Source: Moniliella sp. 'wahieum' | Lineage: Eukaryota | DNA length: 64,000 bases | Reading direction: 5' to 3' | Assembly: GCA_003971905.1 (NCBI GenBank) | Contig: RSEE01000050.1 | Location: forward strand, 124,001 to 188,000 | Shown: piece by piece, positions 1 through 64,000 of the stretch | How the letters are laid out: each line of letters starts with the position of its first letter | Numbering within the stretch: position 1 is the first letter of the stretch | The notes under the pieces: generated by a model | What the model was told of the DNA's origin: nothing | Seen by the model: the letters and a program-made list of their open reading frames with translations, nothing else | Databases searched by the model: none | Translations under genes and position numbers: made by a program

Positions 1-3000
1 TCGCCTTGTCGATGTGGACCCACAGCAGCGATACATGAAGTTTGACAAGATCAACTGGGAGCGTGTCTTCTTCAAGAATTACCGTGAGTCCCGCTCTTGG
101 GGACACCTTGTCGTCAACTTCAACCGCATTTGGATCTTCCACTTGTCGGCCTTTTGGTATTACACAGCGTACGTTTCATTTTATCTTCCATTCTCGTCCC
201 CTGTTCCGTGTGTTGCCATCTAACCAACCTCACACCTTCCGTTAGAGCAAACGCACCCCGGATCTACACCGCTGATAATACACCCACACTTCCTCAAAAA
301 TTGACGTTTGCGGGACTGGGTGGGGCAGTGTCGGTGATGCTGATGCTGCTTGCGACCTTTTTGAGTGGGAGTATGTGGGAGGAAACAATCACAACAATGC
401 TCACCTTCTCTCCCGGACATTATTTTTGCTCGTCTGCCTTGCGCTTACAGTCGCCCCCGCGGTGTATGTCCTCGGCTTTTCTCACAAAGGGACGGTACCG
501 ACCATCATTGGGTTGGTTCACATTGCTGTGGCAGGCACAATCACCGTCTTTCTCTCGATCGTGCCCAGTGGGCGTATGTTTGGCGATCGGGTACGTGGGA
601 AAGCCCGCAAGTATCTTGCTAGCCAAACGTTTACCGCTTCTTACCCCTCGCTACCTGCGGGCCAACGAGCAACAAGCATTGCGCTCTGGGTTCTCATCTT
701 TGGCTGCAAGTTGACCGAATCGTACTTTTTCCTCGCCCTCAATTTTAGCGAGTCCCTGTCGATCCTGGTGCGGATGCAGGTGCAAAACTGCCGGGACCGG
801 TACTTTGGCTCGGCATTGTGCAAAAACCAGCCCATCTTTACCCTGGCCATTATGATCCTCATGGACTGTGTCCTTTTCTTTCTCGATACTTTCCTATGGC
901 ATGTCGTCTGGAGCACCGTGTTTAGTGTTGCCCAGGCCTTCCGTGTGGGAATTCTGTTTGGACGCCCTGGAAGGAGATGTACCATCGCTTGCCTGGGCGA
1001 ATCTACACCAAACTGCTCTGTCACGCCGGGAAGGAAGCCGGGTACAAACCAAAGGTGCTTGTCTCCCAAATTTGGAATGCGGTCGTCATATCCTTATACC
1101 GCGAGCACTTGCTGAGCATCGAACATGTTCAGCACCTGCTCTACCGCCAAGTCCAATCCGACACGGGGCAGCTTCTCTTAAGTCCTCCCTCCTTTTTTTA
1201 CCCCAAAGCCGGACGCCCTCCAGAGTTCTTCCCAAAAGGATCGGAAGCGGATCGGCGGATCAGCTTTTTTGCTCAGTCATTATTGATTGACATGCCTCCT
1301 CCTATCCCTGTGGCAGCCATGCCTACTTTTACCGTGCTCACCCCCCTATTCGGAGAAGATTTTGCTGTCTTGCGGGAAATCATCCGAGTAGAGGACGAGA
1401 GCACCCACATCAGTCTCATTGATTATCTCAAGAAGCTGAATCCCCGGGAATGGGACAACTTTTGACGGACACCAAGCTCCTAGCGGAAGATGAGGACGAG
1501 GAGGTAGTTCATTCCACTCCCAACATGGGCGGCGGAGACAAGCACCGCAGCAAACGATTCAGCAAGAACAAGGTGGAAAACGAAGACGATCTGCCCTTCT
1601 ACATGGTGGGGTTCAAGTCGGCCAAGCCCGAGTACGTGCTTCGGACTCGGATCTGGGCCTCACTTCGTGCTCAGACGGTTTACCGCACGGTTTCGGGATT
1701 CATGAACTATACAAAGGCCATCAAGCTTCTTTATCGAGTCGAGAATCCCGACATTGTGGAGCAATACGCTTCGGATCCTGAGGCACTGGAACGGGAATTG
1801 GAACGCGTCAGCCGGCGCAAGTTCAAGTACGTGATCACCATGCAGCGCTACACCAAGTTCAACAAGGAGGAACGAGAAAACGCAGAGTTTCTCCTCCGCG
1901 CTTACCCCGATCTTCAGATTGCCTACTTGGAGGAGGAACCTGGTAAGGAAGGAGAGGAGGCACGCTGGTTCAGCTGCCTAATTGATGGGTACAGCCCGCA
2001 GCTCGAAAATGGAAAACGGAAGCCCAAGTTCAAGATCGAGCTCCCCGGAAATCCGATCCTGGGCGATGGAAATCCGACAATCAGAACCATGCAATTATCT
2101 TTCATCGTGGTGAGTACCTGCAAGGCATTGATGCCAACCAGGACAACTATCTCGAGGAGTGCCTTAAGATTCGTTCGGTGCTGGGCGAGTTCGAGTCGTT
2201 CAATGTCCCCAAAGTCGATCCATACGGAGTAAATCACCAAGAGCATGCCCAGGCTCCAGTCGCTTTCCTCGGAGCACGCGAGTACATCTACTCTGAAAAC
2301 ATTGGCATGTTGGGGGACAATGCGGCAGGAAAGGAACAGACGTTTGGTACCCTCACTGGTCGAGGCTTGGCCCATATCGGAGGAAAGCTTCACTATGGGC
2401 ATCCCGATTTCCTCAATGCCATCTTCATGACCACCCCTGGTGGCGTGTCCAAGGCCCAGAAAGGCCTGCACCTCAACGAGGACATCTACGCTGGTATGAC
2501 CGCATTCTCGCGCGGGGGCAGGATCAAGCACTGTGAGTACTACCAATGCGGAAAAGGGCGTGATTTGGGTTTTGGTACCATCCTCAACTTTACTACCAAG
2601 TTGGGAAATGGGATGGGGAGCAACTCCTCTCGCGCGAGTACTACTATATGGGAACCCAATTGCCCATGGACCGTTTCCTCACGTTTTACTATGGTCACCC
2701 CGGCTTTACGCTCAACAACTGTATGGTTATCTTCAGCATGCAACAACTTCTCATCCTCTCTCTCGTCTTTTTGGGAACGCTTAACAGCACGATTGATGTG
2801 TGTCAAATCAACTCGCGACAACAGGTTATAGGAGCGATCGGTGCTACTATCTTGAGCCTGTTTTTGCCTGGGTCAAACGCACCATCATCTCCATCTTCCT
2901 GGTCTTTGCCATTGCCTTTCTGCCTTTGTTATGACGGAGCTGTGCGAGCGTGGGGCCTTATCCGCAATCCTCCGTATATCCAAGCAGGTCATCTCTCTCT

Positions 3001-4401
3001 CGCCCTTGTTTGAGGTGTTCACTACTCAAATCTATTCCAACTCCCTGATCTCGAACTTGACCTTTGGTGGGGCACGGTACATTGCCACTGGTCGTGGGTT
3101 CGCCACAAGCCGACAGAGCTTCAGCTTGCTCTTCTCCCGTTTTGCCGGGCCATCCATCTACACTGGGGCTCGGCTCACCTTGCTGTTGGTGTACGTGACG
3201 CTAACTGTTTGGATGTGGCACTTGATCTAGTATGTCCCCTTTCTTCCTCTTCCTCTCCATCTCCTTTCTCTCTTCGTTTTTTGTGCACCTCAGGAATATT
3301 GACACGCCAGTTTCTTTCCCGCCCCAATAGTTTCTGGATTAGTATTACGGCCCTGTTGCTGGCCCCTTACGTGTTCAACCCGCACCAGTTCTCCATGTGG
3401 GACTTCTTTATCGACTATCGCGAGTTCCTCCGCTGGATGAGTCGTGGCAACAGCCGTGCCCACGCCAACATTGGGTAGGCTACTGTCGTCTGAGCCGAAC
3501 CAAAGTGACGGGATACAAGAAAACGCAGTTTGGGCGCGTCGGGGGACAAGTTTGTCAGGCGACCTTCCGCGCGCGGGTGGCGAACCATCTTGTTTGCCGA
3601 ATGTCTGTTCCCGATTGGGACGGCAGTGGTGTTTACAATTGCGTATGTATACGTCAAGTCCTTCCCTACCAAGTACCCCCCCGCCCATGGTGCGATTGTT
3701 CGGGTTGCTTTTCTTGCCGCCGCACCGATTGGGTGGAACGCTGTGGTGCTCATCACAGGTTTTCTTATCAGCATCGTGGTGGGTCCGATGCTGAGCAAGT
3801 GGACCAAGTTCCCCTCGATCATCGCCTCGGTCGCTCACTTTCTCTCCATCTTGGGCTTGGTGGGAATTGTGGAGTTTTGGTGGTTGCTAGAGATGTGGGA
3901 TGCCTCGCACGCGGTGCTGGGACTGATTGCAATGATTGCAATCCAGCGCGCGCTGTTCAAGCTTCTCATTGCCCTCTTCTTGACACGAGAGATGCATGTG
4001 GACGAGACAAACCGTGCGTGGTGGTCGGGGCGGTGGTATGGGCGCGGCCTGGGCTGGCACGCATGGAGCCAGCCGCTACGCGATTTGTGGTCAAGATCAC
4101 CGAGATGGGCGCCTACTCTTGTGACTTTTTGTTGTGCCACCTCATCCTCTTCACCCTCGCGCTGCCCATGCTCTTGCCCTATGTCAACACGCTCCATTCC
4201 ATCGCCCTCTTCTGGCTGCACCCGGGACACCAAATTCACCACCGATCCCTTCTCCCGCACCCAGGAGAAGCAACGCCGCTCGGTTGTTGTCCGGTACGGT
4301 GCACTGTTCCTTCGGGCACTCTCTTAGTGGCGTTGCTCGTCGTGCCGCCTGTGCTGAGCTCCAAGCTGCATGTCAACTTTGACTTTACCAAGTACATTTA
4401 A
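1..4401 (+). CDS. FKS1: 1,3-beta-glucan synthase catalytic subunit (5' part lies before the window; multiple apparent indel errors; introns 169-245 and 3230-3330)
   Basis: Consecutive ORF fragments carry FKS motifs: [106 protein letters not shown]. Removing the GTATGT...AATAG intron at 3230-3330 restores LIYFWI. Confidence 0.97.
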
Positions 4402-9843: not shown

Positions 9844-11534
9844 ATGAGCCAGCAGTCCCCACTCCCTGGCAACGGCAAGCTCGCATCCGAGGTCGTCATT
9901 GTCGTGCTCGGCGCCTCGGGCGATCTGGCGCGCAAAAAAACATTCCCGGCCCTGTTCAATCTGTACCGCCTGGGCCTGCTTCCTGCCAACACGAGCATCA
10001 TTGGTTACGCTCGCACCCGGCTTGACCAGAAAGCCTTTCACGACCGCATTTCCAGCTGTTTCACTAACGTCGGTTCTCCCCAGGGGCAAAAGGCCGCCCA
10101 AGCCTTCCTCGAACTCACGAGCTACACTCCCGGCTCGTACGATGACGATGCGGCATTTCAAGTGCTGGAACAGCAGATTCGTGCCATTGAGACCGAGCGT
10201 GGCGTGAGCCAAGGAGGTTCTCATCGTCTCTTCTACATGGCTCTTCCACCTAGCGTGTTCATCAAGGTGGCAAGCCACCTCAAACACAACAACTATTCTC
10301 CTACTGGCTCCAACCACATCATCCTCGAAAAGCCATTTGGAAAAGACCTCGAGTCCTGCCAGGCAATGCTGGGCGCACTCAAGCCGCTCTGGAGAGAGGA
10401 CGAAACATTTCGTACGTATTTTGGGTGCACTTCGTTGGTGATGGTCTCGTTCCTGCATTTTCCCTCCTTCCGCCTACCCTACCATGAACTGACCAGCGCC
10501 ACACCTCTCTCCTATATCAGGTATTGACCACTACCTGGGTAAGGAGATGGTCAAGAACCTGATGACTGTTCGCTTTGCCAATCCCGTCATCGAGGCGACC
10601 CTCAACAACAAGTATGTTTCCAACGTACAGATCACGTTCAAAGAGCCCTTTGGCACCGATGGTCGGGGTGGGTACTTTGATGAGTTTGGTATCATCCGCG
10701 ACATTCAACAAAACCACCTCTCTCAAGTCTTATCGCTCTTTGCCATGGAACAACCCAGCTCGCTTAGCGCCAAGGCGATTCGGGACGCCAAAGTTGCCGT
10801 TCTGCACGACATTCCGCCCGTCACACAGCAAGACGCGCTGCTGGGGCAGTACGTGGCGGCACAGGGCAAACCTGGGTACCTAGATGACGCCACCGTGCCA
10901 GACAACAGCAATTGCCCTACGTTTGCAGCGGTGGCATTGTGGGTGAACAATGCACGGTGGCAAGGAGTTCCGTTTATCCTCAAGGCGGGCAAAGCACTGA
11001 ACGAGGCCAAGGTGGAGATCCGTGTGCAGTACAAGGACCCCGACAGCAACCTCTTCTCTGGCCCCCAAGCGGAGGAGCTGATGCGCAATGAGCTTGTCCT
11101 CCGGATCCAGCCAGGCGAAGCCGTATATGTCAAGGTGAACGCCAAATCCCCAGGACTGACGTATGACCTGGTCAACGCCGAGCTGAACTTGACGTACAAG
11201 GACCGTTTTAGCTGGTGTGCGCATCCCCGAGGCGTACGAAACCTTGCTTTACGATGCGTTGGCAGGAGATCACAGCAACTTTGTTAGGGACGACGAACTA
11301 GAGGCCAGTTGGTCCATCTTTACCCCGCTTCTTCATGCCATTGATCGGGGTGAGATCAAGCCAGAACCATACGCGTACGGGTCAAGAGGACCCAAGGCAC
11401 TCAACGACTGGATCGCCAAGTACGGTTTCAAATACGAAAATCAAAACTACGATTGGCCTACAACCGACGTTCGTCGCCGCCGCACCTCCTCCCTGGCTGC
11501 CAACCACTTACCTGCGCATTGGGCGCCCTTGTAA
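9844..11534 (+). CDS. ZWF1: Glucose-6-phosphate 1-dehydrogenase (intron 10412-10520; one frameshift near 11215)
   Basis: GASGDLARKKTFPALF, EKPFGKDL, spliced RIDHYLGKE, GRGGYFDEFGIIRD, PEAYETL, FVRDDEL. Confidence 0.98.
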
Positions 11535-21132: not shown

Positions 21133-24100
21133 GCCCAAGTACGTTTCATCCCCCGAGCGGCGGGGACATGTCGGGCAGCGTGGCAAACAAATCGGGGCTC
21201 ATGTTGCTCAGGCTAGTGGAGCTGGACAGGCCGGGGGTGGAGTGCGGCGAGGCGTAGCCATCTGGTCCTTATTCGGCAGGCGGTCCGAGAGGGCGAGAGC
21301 CAGCCCATCGAGGTGGGGGGAGTGGATGGTTGACAAGGGTGTCGGGCGTGGATAGACTGTCGGAGCTGCTGGAGCAGATGAAGTTGAGTGGAGAGATGGG
21401 ACAGAGACGGGCGGGTGGCGCGCATGGACGGGGAGCAAGACATGGCCTAATAGCGCGGGCGAGGGCGAAGGCGAGGGCGACACGGATGAAGGGGTGTAGA
21501 GGGAGAAGCGAGACAATCCAATGAGCACAGGCCCGACGAAATCCTCGTGGAGCGTCTGGGAAGCAGAACGGGAGGCAGGAGGTGGGGCGGGCCGGCGGCT
21601 GGGAGGGTGGGGCGGGCTGCGATATGCAGTTTTCTCACCCCGTGGGAGTAGCTTATACTCGTTAGCACCGAAATGGCCGGCACACACGCACCTCCGTGGA
21701 CCACCCGGGCGGGGGGGGGGGGGGGGGCACGGGGCCAGTCAGGCCCCAGCGTGTCCTGGCGGCCGACAGACGACGCATGACCGGGATCAGGCGCCCCATG
21801 GGTGATCTACACAACCGCTGATTCGGAGGAGGCAAATGTAATGACTGATTGGTCATTGGTTCTCGGTCAGCCTGACCGGCCCTACCGGTGAGCGTCATCT
21901 CTCTCTCTGCTGCTCCGATCATTTCGATCATCCGGTCACTGGTCACCGGCCGGTCACCGGTCACTGAAGAGGCCATCTGGGCACGCGTCCCGCATCACGC
22001 GGCCGTGCTCGCGACTGTGGCAGGACGCACCGGTCCTCCGCCCTCGACCGCCGACCACTGTGGCCATCGCGGTCATCCATCCTCGATCCTGATGCTCTCG
22101 GTCATCAGCGTGACGAACGAACGGCTCGGCCAAAGTCGCGTCACATGTTCATGTCATCACACATCGTGTGGGCCATGCCCCCGGCCTGCGAGCAAGACCT
22201 GGGCATTGTCGCTGACATCCCGGCCGGGGAACCCACGGACGGCAGGGGGCAGTCAGGCAGAGAGAGAGCAGGATGGCTGCGGTCGCCCGTGCCCCTGACC
22301 GGTGACCGGTGACCCAGGTGTAGAGTTTGGAAGGCCTCGGGCCTGCCTCTGATTTTTTGCTCGTTGACATTTTTGACATGGACCGTTGGACATTACTGAC
22401 TGCTGTTTTCGAAATGAGACCGACATCAGCCACGCGAGAGCGCGGTGCACCGCGCCATGGTGAAGAACCCAATGGCTGGCACTGCCTTCGATTGACACGC
22501 CCGCTCCGTCAATACGCCAAGTGCATCACGGATACCAGGCGGGAATTATGCACCGTCTGCATATCATGGAAATGATTCTTCACCATCCCGCATTATATGC
22601 AGTTCCCCGGGAAAAATTAAACGCCACATGCCACTCCCCGCTTCCCAACAAGGAGAAATAGGATGCGTGTGTCTTTGTCATCGATCGCGAATATCGTAGT
22701 TGGTATTAAAACCGAGACCAGCTCTCCACGCAGTCCACACCTCGTTTGCTTCAAAAACCCGCTGGCAGGTGCGATGCGATATCCGTCTCCTTGCCAGTGA
22801 CACGCCATTAAACATTAAACATTGTGAATCTTGCGACCAGATACTTCCGAACGCGTCGAACTCGACTCAATCTATAGCTCTGATTACGATTAGGCAGGGG
22901 CACACGAGAACCACTTCGACCAACAGACTCGCCCATCCACCACGAGAACCGAATAGATGGTGTTTTAGTACCGTAGCTAATCATATGCTGTGGTCATTGC
23001 ATTTACAAAGCTTTTAAGGGTGGGAAAAAAGAAACGCGCTCTATTAAAACCGAGCGCGTGTATTATGGTGCCTAACGCCGATTTACCGAGGAAGGCGCCA
23101 GACGGCAACTCGGCTGCCCACCTAAACCCGATGGGCTTGGGTGCGGCGCCAGGCTACGAACTGTAACATACAAAGCCTTCTGAAGGCTTGAGAAGCTTGG
23201 AGCTCTTGAAGTAGGTGATGCATGATGCGCTCTTTGAAGCTCCAAGCTTCAAACGGAACAGTGCATTGAGTTTCAGTCTCTTTCTCGGGCCGCGGCGCCA
23301 CGGTGACGCGTCAGCGCTCGGCGAGCATAATAGCCGCGTGGTATCTAACACGCAGTAGCGCATCTATCGCCTATCTGCCTTCCTCATCCTTAGTGAACTT
23401 CCTCCCCCTCGCACTGCGCCACTCGATGCGAGTGTGAGCGATGGTAGCGTCAGCGTCCGGGATGCATGGGTACATGAGAAAACCAAGGAGCGTGGCCAAT
23501 AGGCTCACTTAGTAGTTGGTTTGGATAGGGTCTGGAGAAAAAGAGGTGCAAGATCCAAGACGGAGAGCCTGGAAGAGCCAAAAGTCCGTTACCCGGTTTC
23601 GTGCCAGATGAGATCTAGATCCAGGTCTCATCGACTTCAAGCTTCAGTCCTCGTGTGTGTCTCAACAACAACGTATCATAAACTAGGTACAACGGGGACA
23701 ACGCGACAACGATCAATGGTCCCAACAGACGCTCTGAAAGCCACACAGTCAGAGAGGTCATCGATTTCTCGGCCCGAGCGGCATATACCGGCCTGCATGA
23801 CATGCATGACCTGCGTCATGTGACTAGTGACTAGCACGACATACACGTCCTACGACCATTATGACGTACACGACCAGCAAGACGTACAACCAGCATGACC
23901 TACACGGCCCAGCGTAATGCATAACCTGTGCATGATCTGCTTGTGGCAAACCGTGGAGAAAAGATGAGGCCATTCTAGGAGAACTGTGATCATGCGTGAT
24001 GTGGAGTACGAGATCCCGATTGGGCATGGACGTGTGGGGCTGCCCGCGGGGGGAGCCCGCGCTGGTAGTGACTAGTGACTACTGAGTGTACGCAGTGGCA

Positions 24101-26351: not shown

Positions 26352-29300
26352 TTACACCACTTGGACATTCAGGAAAGGGATCTCCACGTCCTCCCCATTC
26401 TCATCGTCGGCCATCACCTCCACAACCACCCAATGGACGTGAGGCGGGATGGGCTTCTTAGACACGTGCTCAATGAGCTGCCGCATCGTCATCCCTAACC
26501 GCTCTTTGCGGTCCTTGGCAAAGGGGAGAACAGCATTGACACACCCGACGACACCATCGAGATCTCCAATTTCTCCTTCTTCTCAAAGTCATCAATCAGC
26601 TGTTGAAGGGTAGGATTACCGGGAATGGTGAACCGATCCCACAGCGTCCACTCATTGTCGTAGTACTTGTTCTTTGGTGGCGCAATCGGCTCTGAGGAAG
26701 CGACAAAGGGCAGGGCCAAGTTGACAAACGTGTTCTTGTAGTCCTCAATGGTACGGCGGCGCTTGCGCGGGTCGGAGGAATCATCAGCGACCCCATCATC
26801 AATCAACTTGTACAGCTCCACCGACACCAGACCCGAGGCTACACTGGTGCTCGTGATCAGAGCCGGGATGATCTTGCCAGCAATCCCCTTGATCTTGAGC
26901 CGGTCTGCGATCGGGATGCTGTAGTTTTCGGCGCGTAGGTTGGCCGCTGCAGCGATAAAGTCAATATGGAAGTTTTCATCCACATCCTTCTCAAAGTCGG
27001 CGGGGGTCAGACGGTAGCCGGCCAAAGAAGCGGAAGAGGGAAGTTGACTAGCGATTTCAACAATCTCCTCTTCTGTGGATCCTCTCCCTCTCCCCCTGCT
27101 GAGGGGCCGGATCATTGTCACTCGTCTGGACCTTGACGTTGCTCTTTGGCTCAAACGCGGGGACATGCACGTCAGCCAAGATGCGCTTGAACACCTCGGG
27201 GTCCTCTCTCCCTTGAGGCCATAATTCTCTGCGTGGAGATTGGCTGCGGCGATCACATAACCAAGGTGAAGATCATTGTTCGGATCAAACTGGAGTGCCT
27301 TGGGGGCACGTTTGGGGCCCGACCAGAACAATTGGCCCGTGCTAGTCCGAGCGTCAGGGGGAAGAGAATAGAGAAGCTGCTTGATCGTGTTGGCATAATC
27401 CTCCTCAAACTTGAACCGGGCCCACTTGACGCACGCTGCAAACGAAATGGGCTTTCGTCCACAAGGAAAGCCTTGATTTGGGAGATTTGCTCCTTCTGGC
27501 TGATCACGCTGCCCGATGAAGAAGGGTCGAATTAACATAGTCTGGTGTCGTGAGGTATGGTTCACGTTCTGCGCAGGCTTGACAAAGAACTCGTCAAACT
27601 TCTCCCGCGCCCAAGCAATCGTGTGTTCAATGGCGTTCGGGAAGTTCTTGAGGGTACACATGGGGATAGACTTCTCAGGCGGGTCTTGCGAAGAGGAGTA
27701 GCTTTCCGTCAAATGGGGAACAACAACTTGTGTGTTAAGTTGAGTACCCAACGTGCCCGATTCAAGAAGCGGTTTCTGGTAGTACACACACCGACGGTCC
27801 ATGTACTGCCGCGCCTGGACATTGTCCAAAGCATTCGTCACCCGTCAGACGGGCAAAGAACTCATCCCCATATACATCCTCCGATTCAGGCCCCACCCGC
27901 TCCTCGCTTGCTTGAATTTTCCCTTGAGATCTGGGTTCATCTCGATCACAGCCGCCGCCGCTGTCTCGGCTTTGAACTTGCCCACGTCCTTAGGACGGAA
28001 GAGGAATTGACGGTTCAAGTTGGACTTCTCAATCTGGTCGTTGTCTGTCACGTGGATGGCGCCCTCCGGTCCGGTCGCAAGGCCCATCATGGCCCAATTC
28101 TTGAGCATCTCGCACCCAATGGCCCCTGACCCACTAGGAATGGCGAGCATTGCTAAGTTTGGTTTGGAACGTCTTACCAAACACACCAATTGGGAGTCAT
28201 ACCTCGTGCCGACAGGTTCAAACTCCGACTCGGGCAGCTCGTCAATGTTGAGCGGAAGAGCCTCGAGTGTCAATGTAGAGGTGCTGGACCAGCGGGTGGA
28301 ACTTCCCGCTCACCGCCTTGAGCACTCTTGCCCGACAAAACCACCAATAAACGCCACAATGGGAGACAAGTCTCCACGGGCCTGTTTGGCAAGTTCAAGG
28401 ACAACCTTCTCTTCCAACTCATCTTCACGCCCGGCCTTGGCCCAAATGTTCTTCGCTAGGCTAAGGACTGCTTCAGCATCTGCTGAATTGCGGGGAAGGG
28501 GCAGACGGCCCTGCGTATCTTGGAACGCTCCCAGAGCTTGGAAAGCCGTGTGGATCGTGTTGGGTCGCTCAAATTTGGCAAAGTCGGTAACGAGAAACTC
28601 GGGCTGCTTAATGCTCTCGTTCAAGGGCTTGAACTGGATCGTCTCGGGCATCTTGACCTGTTGGAAAATCCCTTCTCGTTCGTACTCGCCCTCAAACCCA
28701 GTCGTATCGCCAATCTCGAACGTGTAAGGGCCAACAACAGTCACCTTGAACGGGCCGGCATTGTTGATTCCCTCAAGGCCTTGTACTTCGGAGAAGGCCA
28801 CATAATCACCATCCGACAGGCCATGTCGCGTTTCGTCCAACGTTGTTACCAGACCTTTCTTATCCTTGTCAATCGAGGTAATCATACCCTGCAAGGGCGG
28901 CTGGCCATTCGTGTCGTTGCAGACAAAATTGGGGCCAAAATCGCAGAATACCGAGCCAAACAAACCACGGGCGGCCGCAATAAATTTTGCCCACTACGGG
29001 CAACATTGTTGAGCTCAATTTGTCGCGAAAGCGGCGCGTCAGTCAAGACAATCACCTGCACACTTCAAGTCAGTACCACACATGGAGGGTGAGGCCAGGG
29101 CGGTTGCGGGGGAGGGGAAGGAAGCGTACCTGGAACTGGCTCAGGGCGGAAGCATCTAGAATTGGCGCTTCCAGTACGCGCACTGGAACGTAGCTGTTGA
29201 GTTCGGCGAGGCGTGGGGCAGTGGCTTCGGCTCGGGACTTACCCGTGCCCACATCCGAGAGGCGGAGGAAAAACTGAGAGGCCAAGTCCTGGATCGTGAT

Positions 29301-47850: not shown

Positions 47851-48894
47851 GGCTTTCATAACGCGTTCGGTTAGACGCTTGGAAGTGCGAGGTAGATGTG
47901 GTTGGTGGGTGAGAGGCAGAAGGAACAAAGTATACAAAACGATTGTGGCATCTTGCCCAACAGTCGGTTCTCTCTCTCCTTTATATATCAGAGCACCTGA
48001 AGTTGTTGGTCGTTCACCTCATAACGACCCTCCCACCGTTACATCATAGTAGGTAGGATGGGATCGGCCCAATGGGAGGGCGGTGATTCTCGATCCATGC
48101 ACCATGGTCAACAACGCGGGCTGCGGTGAGGCCTGAGGACTCGGGCTGAGGCACGGCTGTGTGAGGCTTTTGAATTCAAGTGTGTTACCGTTAGCGTTGC
48201 CATAGGCCTAACGCGACTGCAAGGCATGTCTTGCGGCCGTGTGCGCGGTAGGGTGGATGGGAGATACGGCCCATGGCTACCCTGAGGCCAAACGGGCCCT
48301 CTGCCTCATCTTCCACATGAGTAATGCAGACGTCATGATGATGCAGTGATGACGCTGTATATACTGAGTGTACAGAAGGAAGCGAGCCGCGAGCACCCTT
48401 CAGACGGGAGTGTGGCGAGCAAGAGAGATGAGTTCATCGCTGGCCTCAGCACAGAGTGCATTGGGAACGCATCACCCCTCTTATCCGCCCGGACGCTCCT
48501 TCTGCTCCGCGGTACCCTCGGCTATGCAAGGCCCTACCTTTCTCTCACAGCCTCCTGTTCCTCTCCAGGCTCAGAACCACATCCTCCGTTCTTCTCCTTC
48601 CTCAGCACTGGGTGCTATGGGTCGATAAGACCCGGTGTAGCTGGGGGATCCTCAGCACCCTCCGTGTGGTTGATCGATCGACGCACCGTAAGCGGCCGTG
48701 ATGCACGTGATGACTGCTGGCTGCTGGCACTTGAAAGTTGCAACACGCGAGGCGGGGTGGTGCTAGGGTTGGGCGTCGGCCGCATCGGCGGGTGCTGGAT
48801 GCTCGCCGCCCGTACGTGCCGGCCGCGGCAGAAAGAGAAAGAAAGAAAAATTGCAGCCCAGCAGGCGGCCCGTCCTTCGCCATCCTCCACCACC

Positions 48895-50525
48895 ATGGGT
48901 ACGTGCGGCCCCCTCCTGCGCCTTCTCCCCGCTGACCCCCCCCCCCCCCCCCCCAGCACCCAAGAAGGGCAACAAGAAGGTCTCTCTCAACGACTTTCTC
49001 AACTCCAACGCCAGTCGGACTGGGCCGATGACGGCTTTGACCTCCCCACTGCTCCTGCTGCCAAGGAGCACTCGTTTGGCGGCAGCGGCCTCGACTTTGC
49101 CCCCGACCGCAAGGACCGCGATGTCGGTGGCTGGGGCTCCGGCGCAGCGGGTCGTGAGCCGCGCGAGCCCCGGCCGGATGTGCCGCTGCCAACCGAGCCT
49201 CCCTTCACTGCCTTTGTAGGCAGCATGAGCTTTGACTCGACCGATTCCGACTTGGAGGCCTTCTTTGAAGGGTTGCCCATCAAATCGATCCGCATTGTTA
49301 CTGAAGGCTTCTCGGAAAGAGCAAGGGCTTTGGATATGTCGAATTTGACCGCTGGACGCGTTGCAGGATGCACTGTCCCGGACGGGCGGCGTGGTGACCG
49401 GCCGCGCGGTGCGCATCTCGGTCGCTGAGCCCCCGCGTAACTCGGGTGGATTTCCTCGGCTGCTGACAGTGCTGACCAATGGCGCCGTTCCGGGCCGGCA
49501 GCGACGAGCACGCGCACCCCCTCGCGTGGGTTTGGGCTGGATTTGACGATGGGCCATCGGGCTTTGACTCGATGGATGTGTCGGGGGGGGTGCGGGCCGG
49601 ATTCGGGTCCAAGTTTAACCCGGACGCTGCTCCCCCGCGCTCGAACCGGTTTGGCGGGGGCGACTTTGATCCGCAAGCGGGGGATGATGCGTCGAACTGG
49701 CGCACCGGCAAGCCGATCGAGTCTCGTGCCCCGCCCACCCGACAATTCTCTCACGGCGCGTCTGCCGGGGAAGATGTGGTGCTGGACCGCTCGGCGTTTG
49801 GGCAGAAGGTCACCCCACCGCTGTGCCCGACGAGCGGGCGGAGCGGCCGGGTCGGATGGGCTTTGGCCGTCAACGGAAGGCGAGGTGACGCTGGACCGGT
49901 CTGCGTTTGGTTCCAAGATGCCCACCCAGGCGCCGAGGCGCTCGCCGTGGGTTCTTGGACCGTCGCACCAGCAGCCAGCACACCTCGCCTGGTGCTACGC
50001 CGGCCGAGGAGGCAGACCAATGGCGTCGCGCGAGCCCCGTCGCTCCCAGTGCCCCGCGTGAGCGGCAGCATCTCAAGCTGCAGCCTCGTAGCTCTGCTGC
50101 CCCCCGTGGGGAGCGAGGCGACGAGCAACAGCTCCAAGCCATCGCCTTTTGGTGCTGCCAAACCCGTGGACAATGCCGAGCGCGAGCGGGAGATTTCTGC
50201 CCGGCTGGAAGAGCGTCGTCGCCAGGAGCAGGAGCAGCACGGAGCGTCAGGCTTCCGAGGCCGCTGCTCCGGAAGTGGTGCCAGTGAACCGGCCCGAAAG
50301 AACCCCCCTACCAACCGTGGAAGTCCATGTCTAGCAAGAAGGCTTCCTCGCCGAGCAAGGAGGCTCCTGAGGCGAGCAAGACCTCCCGGCGAAGGAGGCT
50401 CCCCCTCAGCCCGCAAAGGCCCGTGCACCGGCTCCTACGGGCGCTTGGGGTGCCGGGCGGGCCCCTTCGGGCGACTGGCCACCAAGGAGGTGGAGCAGAA
50501 GCTTGAAGCTACCAAGTTGGCTTAA
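48895..50525 (+). CDS. TIF3: Translation initiation factor eIF4B (intron 48899-48956; frameshifts)
   Basis: Spliced start MAPKKGNKKVSLNDFL, DWADD, RRM LPTEPPFTAFVG...GRAVRISVAEP, DxxxNWR repeats, KPSPFGAAKPVD. Confidence 0.9.
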
Positions 50526-50939
50526 GGGCGGCGAGCCCTTTTGTCCCACGAGGTTCGGGCGATCTTATGAAGTGTTCCCCCCCCCTTTCAGCGCCCCTCC
50601 TCGAAAAAAAAGTCCCAGGTTAACTGGAGCGTAGGTGCCTGGCACCGCACCCTTCCCTACTCTTATCATCGTCCTCTACGACTACCCGCTCTGACTGTTC
50701 ATCCCGTGCGTTGTTCACCCCCTCTTCTGGCCTCCTATGCACACGGCTCCCGGGAACATTTGATTGGGAGCTTTGCGCTGTCCTACCCCACCTTCCTGAT
50801 CGATAATGGTTTTGCCCCTTTATGGTCTCTGTCGCTGCAGTGGCAGCTGTCTGTGCTTTGTCTCGCTCTGAAAGCCGTGTGCCATACAATGAGCATGCAT
50901 AGAACCAGTACACATGAACTGGAGTGCGGGAGGTAGGGT

Positions 50940-52541
50940 AAGAGAAGGGAGCCGCGCCTAGGCGGGAGGGAGGGATGCCGCTGCCCAGGCATCTTCAATC
51001 GCGAGTTCAGCAAACGTCAGGCCGCGTTCGGCCCATTGCTGCATCGGCAACTGGCTGAAGGAACGCGGAGGTAGGGCGAGGGTACGTTGGTCGGGGAAGA
51101 ACAGGAAGCTGGCACGGCCACCACACCGCGGTCGAGGGCGAAAGGGATGAGGCCCTGGCGTCGCCCTCTGCGACTCCTTGGTAGGCGGCAAGCTCAACTT
51201 GAGCCAGAGGAACATGCTGCCGCTGGGCTAACCAGGAGGCTAGTTGCTTCCCACGCTTGTCTCGCAGCACGGCGCTGGCCACCTGCTCAAACTCGTCCGC
51301 TGGTGCGGTAAAACAGAGCAGCGCGATCGCACGAGCGCAAGAAACCTTCCTCGCCCCAATACTGCAGCAGTGTACCGGTCATGGCCGCTGCAGGGCCATT
51401 GGGTTGCATGCTGGACGCTGTGCCGAGGTGGTGAGCGCATCAATGATCGGCTTGGGCCCCGTCGCGTACCCGACTCGCATCCCCGCCGAAACAATCTTGC
51501 TAAACGAGTCTAGTCGCACCACACGACCGTCGCCCCAGATCTCCACGTCTTCTTGTTCCAGGGCCAAATACGACGTGGGACGGGCCCGAGTAACCGGGTC
51601 CTCCACCCCCAAGCCCGAGCTAAAGTCAAGGTAGTAGTAGGGATCGTCCTCGATGATCAGCAAGCCGTATTTGCGAACGAGAGAGAGGATGCGACGCTTG
51701 CGCTCTGTCGTGGCAGAGGTACCAGAGGGATTGCCACCGACCGGGACTGTATAGATGGCCTTGGGAAACCGCTTGTGCATCGTTTCGGGCGCGCTGTGCC
51801 AGTGGCTCAAGGTTGTCTCTAACCCGGCGTTGCTGAGTCCCCCTTGGTCTGTGGGAACAGGGTGCGGGTTGGCCCCCAGGGTCACAATGCAAGGAAGCAC
51901 ACCACTAGAATACACGAGAACGTTAGCAAACTTCGAAAGCAGGTGGAACGCAACGAACGCAGGACGCAGGGTATGTGGGCGCCTCGACCAAGATGGTATC
52001 CCCTTTGTTCAGCAAGGTAGCGAACACTTTGTCAATGACATGTTGGGCGCCAGCACAAACGCGACCGCCCACGGTGTGTGGGGGGTGTACTGGCCCGGGG
52101 CGGAGAGACGTAGATGGGTCGGTTGTGAGCGAGGGAGGTGTGGGTGACCACCCACTCGTGAAGGATGGAAAGTCCGTTGGACGAGCCATATTGCAACGCC
52201 TCGTGAAGAACTTGGTCCTGGATAGCGAGTTGGGTGAGCGTCGATCCATTCTCTCGATCGGGGACGGAGATGGTGAGGCCCTTGAAGGCGAACGTTTCCA
52301 ACGCGGGCTTGCCGCCGGCAAAGGAAAGCTTCCCCTTGAGTTGCTCTGGCTTGTAAAACCCCCGGATTGAGCCGAGGGGCCAGTTCTGGGCCAAGTCCGA
52401 AATGTACTTGGCATAGCTGAGGTGCTGCACTGGTTCGTGCGGCAGCCCTGGCCCGGCCTTGTCAGGACCCACGCACGGCTTCTCGTCCTCTCCAACGAAC
52501 GGGAGATGGGGCTTCTCCCCCAATTGGCCGTCCGGGGCCAT
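50940..52541 (-). CDS. PLP-dependent class I/II aminotransferase, Aro8/2-aminoadipate transaminase-like (3' end approximate; intron ~51906-51970)
   Basis: LSFAGGKP, EALQYGSSNG, ILVEAPTYP, IYTVPVGGNPSG, IIEDDPYYYL, RLDSFSKIVSAGMRVG containing the PLP lysine, MFLWLKL. Confidence 0.92.
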
Positions 52542-57400: not shown

Positions 57401-57668
57401 CTGTCCCAGCCTTAAGCTTTTGTCAATGAAATGGACGTGATATGTAACATGTAACATGAACCGCAGTAATTTTCGTTTTTCGATGACAGGCTGACGAAAG
57501 ATCGAGGGCAATGCAGATGGTTATCCCGGTGAAAGTGGCCGTCGATCTCGAGGTCATCCGCCATATCGCGCTCAGCCTCAGTCCTCGCTGAGGGGCTGAG
57601 CCCCAGCGGCGACCGGTGTCAGGTAAGGTGTGACCTGTGAGTGACGGGCACGCAGAAGCTGGAAGCTG

Positions 57669-57980
57669 GATGCTTCGTTACGTGTTACGTGGTAACGTTT
57701 CACGGTACTAAGCACGGTGAATATGAGATTCGAACGGCGACCATTGCGCCCTCGAGACTGTGTGCACCTGGGATGTGCGCTTGGCATATTCCCTTTTGGT
57801 GCGGAAGGAGAGGGAAGATGTGGTTCTGAGGAGAGGTATATAGGCTGTGAGAAGCGTAAGACGTTATATCGCTGAGGGTACGGGGCGCAGAGGGAGTGTA
57901 CGGGCGGATCTACGAGGGTGATGCCTACCATGCAGGAGGGGTGATTGAGCCGCCGTCTGGCATGGTCGCAACGCTTGCTG
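57669..57980 (+). repeat. Left copy of ~312-bp direct repeat, abutting the left TIR
   Basis: GATGCTTCGTTACGTG...GCAACGCTTGCTG matches 63345-63660, with 8 small differences by eye. Confidence 0.97.
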
Positions 57981-58463
57981 CATAGCTAATCGAAATTTCT
58001 AGCCCAGAACCTTGCCGGCCACACCACAAGCTTGTCTTTAGATTTGAGGGGCACAACTTGTCACAGCCCGCCAACACAGCTAGCCCCAACCTCTTGGACC
58101 ACACCGCGGCAAGGCCGCCCAGCGAGGTTGTCCCTAGATTGCGGCCTATAAAGCTCGTCGCAACCTTGTCCGTTATTCTAGTCGCAATATTTTGTGAACG
58201 GCGGCCAGCCTCGAGTCATCTTAAAAAAGGAGGCCGACCCACGAATTGAACCTGAGGTTTCTCCAGCGAATAGTAGGAATTGGCCGTTGCACCAATGGAG
58301 CCTAAGACCTCAGCAGCAATTTGGAGATCGTTGGGCAGCCACACGTGCTGTGTCCGCTTTCAGCCAAGTCGCTAAAAACTGATAGACTGTGATGGTGTAG
58401 AGTATACATCAACAGTGGTGACTACCATCATTAGTGGCCATTCGGGAAGGATCTAAAGGTTCA

Positions 58464-61400
58464 TTACGGATTGTACTGCCTCCAATACATCGTCGGCAGA
58501 AGGGACATTCTCGCCCTCGACCGCCCAGTCCTGGGCAAAAGCCAAGTCCCCAAGTCGCAGAATATCGGTGTGGGGAGAGAGACAGAGTTGACAAAGTGGT
58601 TGAGCAAGTAGCGCTGTACCGCCGACGTCGCAGACAAGTTGTGCTGGAGCCCATCGGACGTCAAGCCAGTGGTTGTATCCGTAATGCTGTTGGGGACAAC
58701 CCGGCACTTTTTGGCCTTCACGCAATTGTGCTGGACGTTAAGCGGGCCAAAGATGGTGTGGATCTGCGAAGCCGGAATGTAAGTCATGCGTCGGGCGGAC
58801 GCGCGCGGTAGCTCCAGGCCTCGCATGTCATATGCCGAGTCGATAGGCATGATGCGAGCCAAAGCGACATTGACCCAAAGCACAGGGAGCACAAGGTTGG
58901 AACCAGTCCTCGCTGCTCCCGACCCCATCGCAAGTCGGATTGGCCCGCCGGTGCACAGCAACCATATTAGGCCGTTGGGCGGCAACGTGTTCTATCCAGC
59001 CAATGGAAAAGGGCGGCGCATCATGATTCTGGGCATGGCGGGGTGGGGGGACGTCACCAATATCCTGTTGGGTAACAAGCACCCAGTCCCCCCTGGCACA
59101 AAGCTGGCCATGCTGTACGCGGACCAACGGCATGTCGACAATATCTTCGACCGGCCCAGTGGCAGAACGCCGCTCTGCTGTCATTGGTTCAGGAAGCCCA
59201 ACCTTGTCGTGCACCGATATGACTTTGGCCTTAGCCACAGTCTGGATCGAAGCCGGACACGATCCAGCGCTGGAAGGGCTGTTGCGGCCGGCACCGGGTG
59301 CGGGAGGGACTTGCCACACACTGCCGAGCCCTTGGCCCAAGAGCTGAATCGTCGTGCCAGCTTGAGGCGGTGTACCATTCAATTGCAAAGCTGCTCGGCC
59401 CCTGCCGATCCAGACCTCTGCGGACAATTTCTTGGTGTTCCCACCGGGCAGACCCTGTGTCACATCCTCCCCTTCATCGTCAGGGGTTGTATCGCGGGAC
59501 ACGAGTTTTGCACGCGGCATGTCGATTGCCCGCCCTCCACATAGCAGGTTTTGCAGGTTCTCCTGGGCTGCTACCTTGTAGTTCAAGTCGCAGCATATAT
59601 CTTTGCGGTTCGTAAATATTACCGCATTGCGCATGACGCGGACAAACTCCTCCTCACGCTGTGTGTCAGCGTTCTTGAGAGGACCCCACAACAGCGCCCG
59701 CTGGGAGGTGACTCAGAAGGTGGAACTTGGGGCGACGAACGAGCATGGCCGGGTCGATGGCAGCGATGGCCATGAAAATGTGAATCACCGCCTTGTCAAG
59801 CAGTTCCTGTGGGCACATCTGTACGGGGCAGAATGTAAGCTGTGAACTTGGACTAGCGAAGATGATCACGGGCCTAGGAGAGCTAGCAGTTTCAGACGTA
59901 CGCCATATGTAGCTCGGTCTTGAAATGCTAAGCTATCGATGTAGCAAAGCCACTTAATGCGGCGGCCACAATGCACTTGCGGACATTCTCCAGCCTCTCA
60001 ATCTTGCTCAGAAGTCTCTGTCTCGCCATTTCCGTGACGCCGGGCTTGGCGGAGTCCAACCGCAGAGTGGCCACCAACTTGGGCAGCACCAGAGGGAGAG
60101 TCTGGCATAATATCTTGCAGTCAACCCCCGTGATGACTGAGCGCATGCTGTGAACCACTTTAGTGCCATTGAGCCGTCGACCCACCGATTCCATGCCCCA
60201 CGAGTTGAACGAATCCAGCCACAGCGCTAGCGAGGGCCCCTTATCGAAGTTCGAGTCCGTCAGCAGCTCGATCGAGGCCTTGACTCGCCCAAGGAGAACT
60301 GTGTGCATGACGTCGATCGCCAGGCTCTTGCCGACCGAGAAACTCGAGCACCCCTGCCATTCGTGGACAGTCAAAAGGGGTTGAACACTTAGCCGTTGTT
60401 CTTGAACTCATCCAGCAGCTCACGAACGCCGGAGTCCAAATTGGAAAGCAGCCTCTTCCGCTTCTTGCCATTCGTCGCCCCGGCTGAGTCCTCCAGAGTC
60501 TTGCGGGACTTGAACAGGATAAAGGATACGTCTTTCATATACTTTTGTCGTTAACCCCGGTCTGGCTCGCCCGGTCGTCGACACGGCCGTCGTTCTTGAC
60601 GACCATGTCGAGTTATTGGTGATCGACTTCGCGCCTAGTTTCGACACTTGAACGTAGATCGCCTTTTCCGTCTTGATGTATCCGCCGGTTATATTCAGTC
60701 CCATTTTGATGCACAGCAGTAACACCAGTGGTGTCGTATACGCACAAGACAGTCAGCCACGTTCTCCGCCAACGTATTCGTTCCCCGTTGCCGTCCGCCA
60801 TCGCAAAAACGGCAGCACACGTGGGCAGTCATGCCCATAATGGAAGCCATCTCGTTCGCGGCCACGTTGTCGCCCTTTATCATCCGCAGCACGGGCTGTA
60901 CAGGATCCATCCCTCGGTGGTCGAATCCCAGACAGGGATGAGCTCTTCGTGATACTGCCTGCAAGTTCGAAAAAGACGTTAGCATGCTGCTTTTGCCCAG
61001 GAATCACGGCGACTTCAAAGGCAACTTGGCTTAGATTGCGATACTCACTTAGGGTTCTAGCGGTTTTACCAACTGCTCACACAACGGGAGGAGAGACTTG
61101 GCCGTTTCCGATGCAAAGAGGAAAAGGTTCCTTGCCCATCTAGACTGCGACCGTGAAACGTGCATGTTGCCAGCAGCATGCTGTTCAGAGAGCTTGGCCG
61201 ATTGGACACATTGTCTGCAAAACCATCAGCCCAGCCCACTAGCTGGAGACGGACCAGAGCTCGGCCACAGGCCTTGGCTCGAAGGGGATTGACGCTCTTC
61301 CCAATTTCCTCACCGTCCCTTGTTCCTGTGTCGTACCAGGATGTGGAAGTCATCAGTCAACCCGACAAGAATTGCCGCTGCGTGAAGAGCAAGAAAACTT

Positions 61401-62047
61401 ACTAATGGTATAGTCGTCGTAGAGGCGCAACTTGGTTATGTCCAACTGAGTAAGAATGAAGGCGCGTGTCCTGTTGCCGGTGAACTTCAGCAGGTTGGAC
61501 GTCTCGTCTTGGACCAGGTCGATTCCGATCCCGTGCCACGAGTCGCTATCAGCGTCGTGTTGCCATAAGACGGGAAAGATAGGCGCGAAATGCTGACCAG
61601 GTGAACAGATTCGCCAAGGTACATGTGAATGGCCAGATCGCGTGGATGCTTATTGAGCATGACCATCGGCTGAGTCCTTGTGCCGATCAGATCCCATCGT
61701 CCCTTGTGTGGTTCTTCAATGAACCCGTCCTTGAGGGCCTGGACAATCGCCCTGAGCGACCAGGGATTGGGATACTGACATCTTGGAGCGGATGGACGAG
61801 TTCGAGGACATGTATGAGGTGGAAAATGCGGTCTCGCCCGCGAAGGACCCAATGTATATCGTCTCCTGATACAACTGCTCGATACACACACGAGGCTGGC
61901 ACACCGTCTCGATTGCCTTTTAGTTTTGTTGAGCGAGTAAAGAGAGGCAATTTCCCTTCGCTCTTGACCGCGACTTGTGCGAATGCGGTCTTCTCTCGCA
62001 ACGAGACGGTTGGACTGGAGTATCGTGCTGTATATAGCTGCTGTCAC
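58464..62047 (-). CDS. Transposase, CACTA/EnSpm-related (fragmented by frameshifts and possibly introns; start uncertain)
   Basis: Ordered motifs NPLRAKACGR...WADG, IKGDNVAANEMAS...CCRFC, IDVMHTVLLGRVK, ITGVDCKILCQTLP, PKFHLLSHLP, WGPLKNADTQREEEF...FTNRKDIC, NVQHNC. Confidence 0.78.
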
Positions 62048-63021
62048 GACTATCTCAAGTGCGTAGCTTAAAAAAATCTATATATACTAAACGCTCAGGC
62101 TGCAGGTGGGCGCCTTGAGCTGGCGGTGGCGTGGGGGGGCAACACTGGCGCCATGCGGGTGGACCACCGGTGGGCCACCGGTGGTTCGCCTATAACCGCA
62201 CGCAGCTGCGCCGATGCGCTTGCCTCTCGACTACCACCACCACCGCCACCACCACCGCCTCTCTTCTCTCGTTGGCCACACACTACTACCAGAGCTGTTG
62301 CCGTGTGCACGGCTTGTACTAATCACCATGAATACGTGTGTGCTATCGCCGCCCACTGACGCCCCTGCCGTGCACGCGCCCGACCTCGGTACGTCCACGC
62401 CCCCCATGCTGTGATGCCTGCCGTCCTGACTGGCCTGTGCGCAGCCACCGGAACTGAGTCGGCCACGCCTGGCGGCACGGCCTTGCCTGATATCATTTGC
62501 GCCAAGATGCCGGTCATACCTCCCGAAGGCGAGTTGAAGATCAACGACGGGGGCGCTTCCAGCGGACGGTCGACGGCGACGGTTTCCCCGGCCAGGTCAG
62601 TACCTGCGCTTTGTCCTTATCCGCCCATATACTGACAACGCCTTTAAGCAGGATGATCGGAGAAGGCGCTCAAGTGCTGAGGAAACGACCACGGAACATA
62701 TGCAGGCTTGCACACAGATCATCGTTCGCCGTATGGTTGCGGGACTCATTCTCCCTCTCGAACGCGATGACGCTTCGTCCCCACGCCGCAATTGTATGGC
62801 TCTTGTATCTTTGCCCTTCGATCCCTATCATCTCCGTGTCCCCATGATGTTTTTGGTCTGCGATTAAACGACGAAGGCAAAGCTTCTGTGGTTGCCGCCG
62901 TCCTGAGGCTCCTCGAACAACCTGCCGTTGCCTTGGCGCTCCTCTACGTCTCTGTGTCTAAACAACCATGGCAATGTATGCTTTTAAAGATAATCCACTG
63001 CCTGATCTGATAGCATCGTGG

Positions 63022-63088
63022 CACCCTAGCCACCGCCCTAGCCACCACCTAGCCACCACCCTAGCCACCACCCTAGCCGCCAGCCTAG
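63022..63088 (+). repeat. Subterminal ~12-bp tandem repeat (CCTAGCCACCAC)n, about 6 units
   Basis: CTAG cores at 63026, 63038, 63049, 63061, 63073 and 63085, ~250 bp inside the right TIR. Confidence 0.85.
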
Positions 63089-63344
63089 TGAAAATATCTG
63101 TGGCTAGCCTTGCCACCAGCCTGCCAGCAAGGCTGCGGACTGTCCGGGGATAGGTGGGGGATAGCTGGGGGGGTAACCTGGGGCCAAGCTGTCGGGTATA
63201 GATTGTCTCGACCTTGGCGACCATCTTGCGCAGCTTTTCTTGTACAGGGTTGTGGCACTTCTAATCATAGACTCACGGTATCAATTTCTCACCTTGAGGC
63301 GAGATCGGCGGCAACGTTGTGACTAGAAATTTCGATTAGCTATG

Positions 63345-63660
63345 GATGCTTCGTTACGTGTTACGTGGTAACGTTTCACGGTACTAAGCACGGTGAATAT
63401 GAGATTCGAACGGCGACCATTGCGCCCTCCGAGACTGTGTGCACCAATGGGATGTGCGCTTGGCATATTCCCTTTTGGTGCGGAAGGAGAAGGGAAGATG
63501 TGGTTCTGAGGAGAGGTATAGAGGCTGTGAGAAGCGAAGACGTTATATCGCTGAGGGTACCGGGCGCAGAGGGAGTGTACGGGCGGATACTACGAGGGTG
63601 ATGCCTACCATGCAGGGGGGGTGATTGAGCCGCCGTCTGGCATGGTCGCAACGCTTGCTG
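63345..63660 (+). repeat. Right copy (316 bp) of the direct repeat, abutting the right TIR
   Basis: Begins at the base immediately after the TIR and matches 57669-57980. Confidence 0.97.
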
Positions 63661-64000
63661 GGAACAAATTGTGCAGCGGCGCAAAGAACTGTCGGAGATC
63701 TGCCCAGCGGTCTGCTACCGGTGAGGAGGGAGATGGTTGACTAAGGAATGAATTACTGGAGCCTCGGGAAGATCTGCTCCGGAATAAATCGGAGGCGGAA
63801 TGGGCTGGGCCGCAGGTGACGTCCACTCAACAAGAACAGAGGGCAATGGGTTAATGAGGTCGAAGGGGGCTTGCATGTTACACGTTCGGCGTTATGATGT
63901 CACGGGCATTGGTTGCATCAAGCATCGGGCCATCAGGCCATGATGGTGGGGTGTGTGCGTTGGGCTGGGCTGCGCTGGGCGTGTTCGGGCGAGTGTGGCG

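Follow-up and report, generated by a model that had tools for sequence, protein, structure and literature searches.

A transposable element with perfect terminal inverted repeats lying flush between two copies of a 312-bp host-type segment: a candidate product of one aberrant transposition event

Introduction

How does a transposable element with perfect terminal inverted repeats (TIRs) come to lie exactly between two copies of a segment of about 312 bp, with no short target site duplication (TSD) beside it? This question is raised by a locus in a 64,000-nucleotide stretch of DNA from Moniliella sp. 'wahieum' (assembly GCA_003971905.1, contig RSEE01000050.1, positions 124,001 to 188,000 of the forward strand), the whole of which is called the window here and is numbered from its first letter. 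The locus consists, in order, of a left repeat copy of 312 bp (57669-57980), a TIR-bounded element of 5364 bp (57981-63344) and a right repeat copy of 316 bp (63345-63660). We propose that the repeat is host DNA that was duplicated in one aberrant transposase event joining the ends of the element 312 bp apart, and we give this reading a probability of about one half. The observations that carry it are that both junctions fall exactly at the tips of the TIRs, that no short TSD is present and that the repeat is of host type.

Structure of the locus

The inverted-repeat arms of the element (57981-58002, plus strand, and 63323-63344, minus strand) were found by the repeat finder to be 22 nt long, 100% complementary and 5320 nt apart. 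The termini of the element read CATAG..CTATG, and its two ends align with each other over about 37 nt only, at 89% identity. A search of the 64 kb that allowed up to three mismatches found the TIR at these two places only (0.00 occurrences expected from 100 shuffles), and the window holds no second copy of the element, blastn and tblastx comparisons returning nothing besides the element itself.

The two copies of the repeat were recovered by the repeat finder, by local alignment and by BLAST. Six collinear direct-repeat blocks from the repeat finder tile 57667-57980 and 63343-63660; local alignment joins them into one pair of 314 and 318 nt over 313 aligned columns, with 3 substitutions and 5 indel events (6 bases in all), and BLAST gives 97.2% identity across 319 columns. 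The first two nucleotides of the repeat alignment, TG, are also the last two of the right TIR, a 2-nt overlap at the right junction, and the repeat is therefore 312/316 nt long, or 314/318 nt if the TG is counted. Both junctions are flush and have no spacer, the left one reading ..GCTTGCTG|CATAGC.. and the right one ..GCTATG|GATGC... The immediate flanks, CTG before the element and GAT after it, form no 2-3-bp or other short TSD, and the composite of repeat, element and repeat has no convincing TSD of its own, GGAAGC and GGAACA agreeing at 4/6 positions. When the whole window was searched for direct repeats (seed 14, minimum length 40 nt), all 5/5 families found were pieces of this one pair, and chance is ruled out as the source of the structure. 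An earlier note on this DNA, made from its letters alone, had described a 312-bp repeat, 22-bp TIRs and a 316-bp repeat with zero spacer, had seen no 2-3-bp TSD (CTG | element | GAT) and had counted about 8 small differences between the copies; the repeat finder and the alignments bear out all of this.

In the native sequence, GCTG^G stands at both borders of the duplicated segment (57665-57669 and 63657-63661). GCTG thus precedes the segment and also closes it, which in the terms of a tandem duplication is a microhomology of 4 nt; from the viewpoint of the two strand-transfer reactions, the joined target sequences differ from each other. This microhomology is the signature of a microhomology-mediated duplication, and it would suit a history in which a 312-bp tandem duplication arose first through GCTG and the element then landed exactly on its junction. 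We consider that order of events very improbable, because a hit on one junction position among about 624 is itself very unlikely and because a normal insertion should have left a short TSD, of which there is none.

The left border of the duplication is spanned by a 7-bp tandem, GAAGCTG x2.9 (57655-57674). It is one of three 7-bp tandems within 250 bp (ATGTAAC, GAAGCTG and GTTACGT, at 57442-57458, 57655-57674 and 57677-57691); the ATGTAAC and GTTACGT tandems are near reverse complements of each other, and the latter is found again at 63353-63367. We considered the GAAGCTG tandem as an excision footprint and dropped this idea, since the recurrence of similar 7-bp tandems within 250 bp indicates that it is probably ordinary sequence.

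Origin of the repeated segment

The 3' part of the repeat (57797-57975, about 180 nt) has a 73%-identical relative on the opposite strand at 48409-48607 (blastn E 5e-15), with a local score of 141-148, while 30 shuffles gave 78 at most; apart from this relative, the repeat occurs in the window only as the pair around the element. The TIR scan of the window found no TIR adjoining the relative. Because a relative exists with no element beside it, the repeat is, by sequence comparison, a host-type or older dispersed sequence and not a terminus peculiar to this element, and the relative itself could represent a small dispersed repeat or a regulatory module common to the two places. The repeat has no tRNA-like sequence according to ARAGORN, no Rfam family and no convincing open reading frame (ORF). 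When the relative is taken to show the ancestral state, 4 of the differences between the copies are changes in the left copy and 1 is a change in the right copy, while 1 is ambiguous and 2 fall outside the alignment.

The same relative bears on whether the arrangement is a property of the element's family, either because target duplications of hundreds of bp are routine in it or because the 312-bp units are long direct repeats of the element itself, the two ideas that the earlier note had put forward as giant target duplications and external direct repeats. Flush junctions without a short TSD would fit such a property, and the encoded protein, having no detectable relative, leaves room for an unusual mode of integration. 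The TIR-free relative at 48.4-48.6 kb mildly disfavours both ideas and counts against the repeat being element sequence, and a composite with no convincing TSD of its own points the same way. We know of no TIR transposon family with giant TSDs, and the open-access literature that we searched held no TIR family with a regular giant TSD, only retroelement and retrovirus cases together with papers on alternative transposition. Some retroelements do make very long TSDs regularly (Dualen and R9; PMC9977147). However, CA..TG is the common terminus of the EnSpm/Mirage/Chapaev/Transib/Plavaka clade, whose TSDs are given as 2-5 bp in PMC12730594, so that the clade suggested by the termini argues against a family habit of this kind. 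We hold a family property to be quite improbable. Highly doubtful as well is an undescribed TIR family whose ends would routinely integrate hundreds of bp apart, each copy bearing its own giant TSD; the spacing of the ends would then perhaps extend across one or two nucleosomes, and the copies would be cleanly removable by homologous recombination.

Differences between the repeat copies

The differences between the two copies had been likened by the earlier note to the indel noise of the window. Such noise is real, as is seen in three host genes recognised from Pfam and PDB matches, those for 1,3-beta-glucan synthase (FKS1), glucose-6-phosphate dehydrogenase (G6PD) and the ubiquitin-activating enzyme E1 (UBA1). 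From one Pfam profile position to the next, FKS1 (1462-3563, plus strand) switches frame where no intron would fit, at about 1462, 2075, 2610, 2822 and 2928, and two further changes are probable near 3468 and 3540. At 2075 (..GATGGAAATCCGAC..) a conserved stretch of 11 residues carries on in another frame, and one A appears to be missing from a homopolymer run; further frame changes of FKS1 are located in G or T runs. Because its fragments match Pfam at E down to 1e-109, we read the frame changes of FKS1 as assembly indel errors and not as signs of a pseudogene. One frameshift without intron room was also found in the ubiquitin-fold domain of UBA1 (about 26520-26528, minus strand) and one in G6PD_C (about 11220-11245, plus strand); a 449-residue stretch of UBA1 and two G6PD exons of about 250 residues are free of frameshifts. 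Gene models and small repeat differences in this window are accordingly not to be taken at face value, given frameshifting assembly indels.

The density of frameshifting errors in the conserved host genes, about 1.4-3.4 per kb, predicts 0.9-2.1 indels for the two repeat copies, which together amount to 632 nt, and 5 were observed; by a Poisson estimate, the probability of at least 5 is about 0.002-0.06 for these expectations. The five indels lie outside long homopolymers, unlike the errors in FKS1, and the 3 substitutions remain in addition. On the strength of the Poisson tail we rejected noise alone as the cause of the copy differences: it accounts for part of them and not for all, so that the earlier remark was right about the noise, which is plain in FKS1, UBA1 and G6PD, and wrong about its reach, since about 1-2 indels are predicted and not 5.

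A noisy assembly also raises the possibility that the structure is itself an artefact, made when the assembler passed, inside the element, from one haplotype or nucleus to another in which the insertion lies at a slightly shifted position, or by some other mis-join. The visible errors (at least five frame changes in FKS1 between 1462 and 2931 and one each in UBA1 and G6PD) would agree with this, and so would a 2.5% difference between the copies, which is what alleles might show. Yet both types of junction must be present in real reads, and two nearby insertions would still be needed; a simple heterozygous insertion gives no path from the element back into the repeat, and the window has no other duplicated blocks resembling haplotypes. 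An artefact is, in our judgement, distinctly unlikely.

Mechanism

A one-off alternative transposition, or a recombination between nearby insertions, both of which the earlier note had raised, is the most likely class of explanation, and it has published precedents. In the event that we favour, a cut-and-paste-type TIR element of 5.36 kb would have had its ends joined, in non-coding host DNA, to target positions 312 bp apart on opposite strands. Because both junctions lie at the exact tips of a perfect TIR and contain no filler, element-end chemistry at both sides, presumably that of a transposase, is indicated and not random breakage; the lack of a short TSD in turn places the junctions at two target positions 312 bp apart. 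As alternative or hybrid-element transposition would have it, the element is retained with intact ends at the breakpoint and duplicated host DNA abuts its end.

Two routes could have led there. One excised copy may have inserted its two ends independently of each other, leaving two single-stranded gaps of 312 nt to be filled by repair. Alternatively, the left and the right end may have come from different copies, sisters or homologues, of an insertion that already lay nearby and have acted as a pair, in the manner of a hybrid element or of sister-chromatid transposition; one chromatid would then have gained a flanking duplication and the other would have suffered the reciprocal deletion. We take these routes as the best explanation because one event suffices and because direct precedents exist, and the event would have been a single one under either of them. 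If the ends came from homologous chromosomes, the copies would have been different from the outset, which fits the 8 differences. In the present structure, the repeats would permit a homologous pop-out of the element that leaves one clean copy of the repeat.

The crossover form of explanation differs in its first steps. Two insertions of the element in the same orientation, 312 bp apart on homologues or sisters, followed by a crossover inside the element, would yield exactly the observed order of repeat, element and repeat together with a reciprocal deletion; the short TSDs would be concealed within the repeat, the 8 differences would be allelic from the start, and the GCTG^G at both borders could be a target preference. 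The price is two independent hits in the same orientation within 312 bp plus a crossover, and the 64 kb contain no other copy of the element that would suggest high local activity. Moreover, a TSD of 2-3 bp would shift the register of GCTG^G between the two sites, and for the registers to agree the TSD would have to be 0 bp. We regard this history as rather unlikely.

Several points weigh against a single aberrant transposase event. The coincidence of 4-5 nt in GCTG^G is predicted by no staggered-cut or strand-transfer model, and the ancestral-state tally (left 4, right 1) favours no model. The 2.5% difference between the copies fits routes through two homologues, or an old event, and speaks mildly against a recent fill-in from a single template; a single-template duplication would have to be fairly old, and yet repeats of 312 bp should recombine the element out. 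Only one copy of the element is available as evidence of how its family normally duplicates a target. Finally, the hybrid-element route predicts a footprint at a donor site, and none was recognisable, which is weak evidence as the native flanks are not known. The end product has the same sequence by several routes, which a single locus is unable to tell apart.

The element and its affinities

The element has a coding-like region on its minus strand, from about 62077 to 58831, which is divided among three frames and shows no known domain or relative. Codon scores in the element are -0.02 to -0.15 in frame and -0.4 to -0.65 off frame, and in the central part the open frames of the minus strand outscore the opposite strand on codon usage too; host genes score higher than the element frames, at +0.23 to +0.27, with the proviso that the same host genes trained the score. 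The breakup of the gene is about what assembly noise alone would yield, and the element may be intact.

Near the right end, a 12-bp tandem array of 5.7 copies (63022-63088) lies about 235 bp inside the element, and the left end has no matching array. The stretch 63022-63171 near this end comprises 12-bp and 11-bp tandem arrays, and 62158-62259 includes an 11-bp near-palindromic tandem (GGTGGACCACC x2.5) as well as an (ACC)8 / 12-bp CCACCACCACCG array. The tandem arrays of the element could be transposase-binding repeats or low-complexity coding sequence.

Searches for protein relatives were uniformly negative or weak. No Pfam family scored above its curated cut-off in any of the 73/73 stop-to-stop segments of at least 50 residues on both strands, 11 of the 73 giving chance-level rows (E 0.04-0.68), and Pfam returned no family for 12 ORFs with ATG, GTG or TTG starts or for 2 fragments. 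An exhaustive HMMER search with the 294-residue frame against 1.84 billion representatives gave 0 matches, and word-indexed protein searches with the 159-residue frame ('longer' and 'near' lengths) and the 102-residue frame ('longer') brought no scoring match. Against the PDB, phmmer found nothing credible for three fragments, the only matches being to kringle domains at E of about 0.04, which we read as chance. In the ESM Atlas, the best matches of two fragments were unnamed clusters at 0.90-0.93, and the named ones stood at 0.89: an RAG1_ZnH2 cluster for the 159-residue frame and, for the 294-residue frame, a Basidiomycota cluster with DUF6830 in 19% of its members, both weak leads. A literature search on DUF6830 gave no paper. 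Single-sequence AlphaFold models of the fragments reached a predicted local distance difference test score (pLDDT) of 44.4 and 31.5, too poor for a fold search.

The Pfam scan also bears on whether the whole 5.99-kb unit could be a retroelement of the long terminal repeat (LTR) type with the 312-bp repeats as its LTRs. The layout would fit, with direct repeats of about 0.3 kb around 5.3 kb and a repeat that starts with TG. However, a reverse transcriptase, integrase, RNase H or gag domain was found in none of the 73/73 frame segments, and CTG instead of CA closes the repeat. At the inner borders, where a primer-binding site and a polypurine tract would be expected, there is a perfect inverted repeat. 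An LTR element is exceedingly improbable, the domain scan and the junction sequences in effect refuting it.

The earlier note had labelled the element CACTA/EnSpm, a label that no test supports. Its termini are CATAG..CTATG, so that neither CACTA..TAGTG nor the looser CAC..GTG is present and only the CA..TG of the wider clade is shared. The 2-3-bp TSD of CACTA/EnSpm (2-5 bp for the clade) is absent from the one copy, which is flanked by the 312-bp repeat instead. The scan of the 73/73 segments yielded no transposase, including the DDE transposase of Tnp2/Transposase_21 or Plavaka type, of which assembly frameshifts may hide a remote match. The motifs DGF, GDxxA..CxxC and DxMH in the element frames may resemble those of CACTA/Tnp2-like proteins, a likeness that is not a test. 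The pointers to the broad CACTA-type clade are thus limited to the CA..TG termini and the two weak Atlas leads; the family of the element is unclassified, and CACTA/EnSpm is an unproven hypothesis.

The CMCT clade (EnSpm/CACTA, Mirage, Chapaev, Transib, Plavaka and others) shares with the element CA..TG termini, TIRs, a length of several kb and occurrence in fungi. It differs in having 2-5-bp TSDs, which are lacking here, and in its transposase, to which the searches showed no similarity; the element begins with CATAG, not with CACTA or CATCA, the latter being part of the PlavakaB termini CATCA..TGATG in PMC12730594. The 10-mers of the TIR had 0 matches in the truncated cell text of Table S1 of that paper, and the exact TIR had 0 matches in a collection of prokaryote genomes, as expected.

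Comparison with known systems

The most likely origin of the locus is one irregular event, by transposition or by recombination, and events of this kind are already on record for flies, maize and human endogenous retroviruses. In maize, alternative transposition of Ac/Ds creates tandem direct duplications de novo, with examples of 116-1262 bp in the genome, and the products of reversed ends carry a copy of the element at the head of each unit and TSDs of 8 bp (PMC3744419). The likeness lies in a transposase-made duplication of flanking DNA with element ends at the breakpoints, which is what we propose here. The difference is that a single element stands between the two units of the present locus and no short TSD is visible.

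For the P element of Drosophila, hybrid element insertion reportedly leaves flanking duplications or deletions beside a retained element, as is said to have been found by Gray, Tanaka and Sved in 1996 and by Preston, Sved and Engels in 1996. The products resemble the present locus in one retained element, in host DNA that is duplicated (or reciprocally deleted) against its end and in the lack of a matching short TSD. The Drosophila products came from an active P element and were obtained by genetic means, whereas ours is one static locus with an unclassified element of fungal type and with no reciprocal product or footprint in view. The 'flanking rearrangements' from hybrid element insertion are mentioned in PMC3744419, and the work on them is also cited in PMC3439972.

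Duplications of comparable length have been reported for HERV-K(HML-2), where sporadic TSDs of 111 bp, 250 bp and putatively 450 bp occur in a family that normally makes short ones (PMC5488345). Here too an integrase of the DDE type is concerned and rare members have duplications of hundreds of bp, with the same doubt between a true TSD and a 'pseudo-TSD'; the comparison is limited in that HERV-K is a retrovirus that integrates cDNA and whose pre-integration alleles were sequenced. Among non-LTR retroelements, long TSDs are made by Dualen-4b in Chlamydomonas (median about 900 bp) and by R9 (126 bp), as given in PMC9977147. These elements likewise have a duplicated target on both sides, the length of their TSD being the distance between two nicks. 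They differ in that duplication comes about by target-primed reverse transcription and is a regular trait of the family, whereas this element has TIRs and no reverse transcriptase.

If the event was a one-off, the locus shows neatly, and apparently in a fungus, a natural case of host non-coding DNA, a few hundred bp of it, being duplicated directly by a DNA transposon, and the repeats would give a built-in route to scar-free loss of the element; it is then a useful illustration and not a surprising one. If other copies of the element bore long duplications of their own, its family would be the first of the cut-and-paste kind to have a giant TSD and would, if so, challenge the rule that the geometry of the transpososome fixes TSD length.

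Other features of the window

In addition to FKS1, G6PD and UBA1, an XPG-type nuclease and a Cid1-type poly(A) polymerase were recognised in the window from Pfam and PDB matches. The G6PD coding sequence is interrupted by a canonical intron, GTACGT..CAG, at about 10413-10521. We infer from the window a eukaryote that is fungus-like. The UBA1 pieces 27848-28309 and 26498-27844 are in the same frame, with a stop at 27845-27847 between them. The G+C content of the window is 52-63%, and it is highest (0.62-0.63) in 48000-52000, where long ORFs overlap on both strands; the two of these that were scanned, 48346-49428 and 49479-50525, have no Pfam match. The sole tRNA that ARAGORN called in the window is a tRNA-Trp (CCA) of 87 nt at 23205-23291 on the plus strand, a length that could accommodate an intron.

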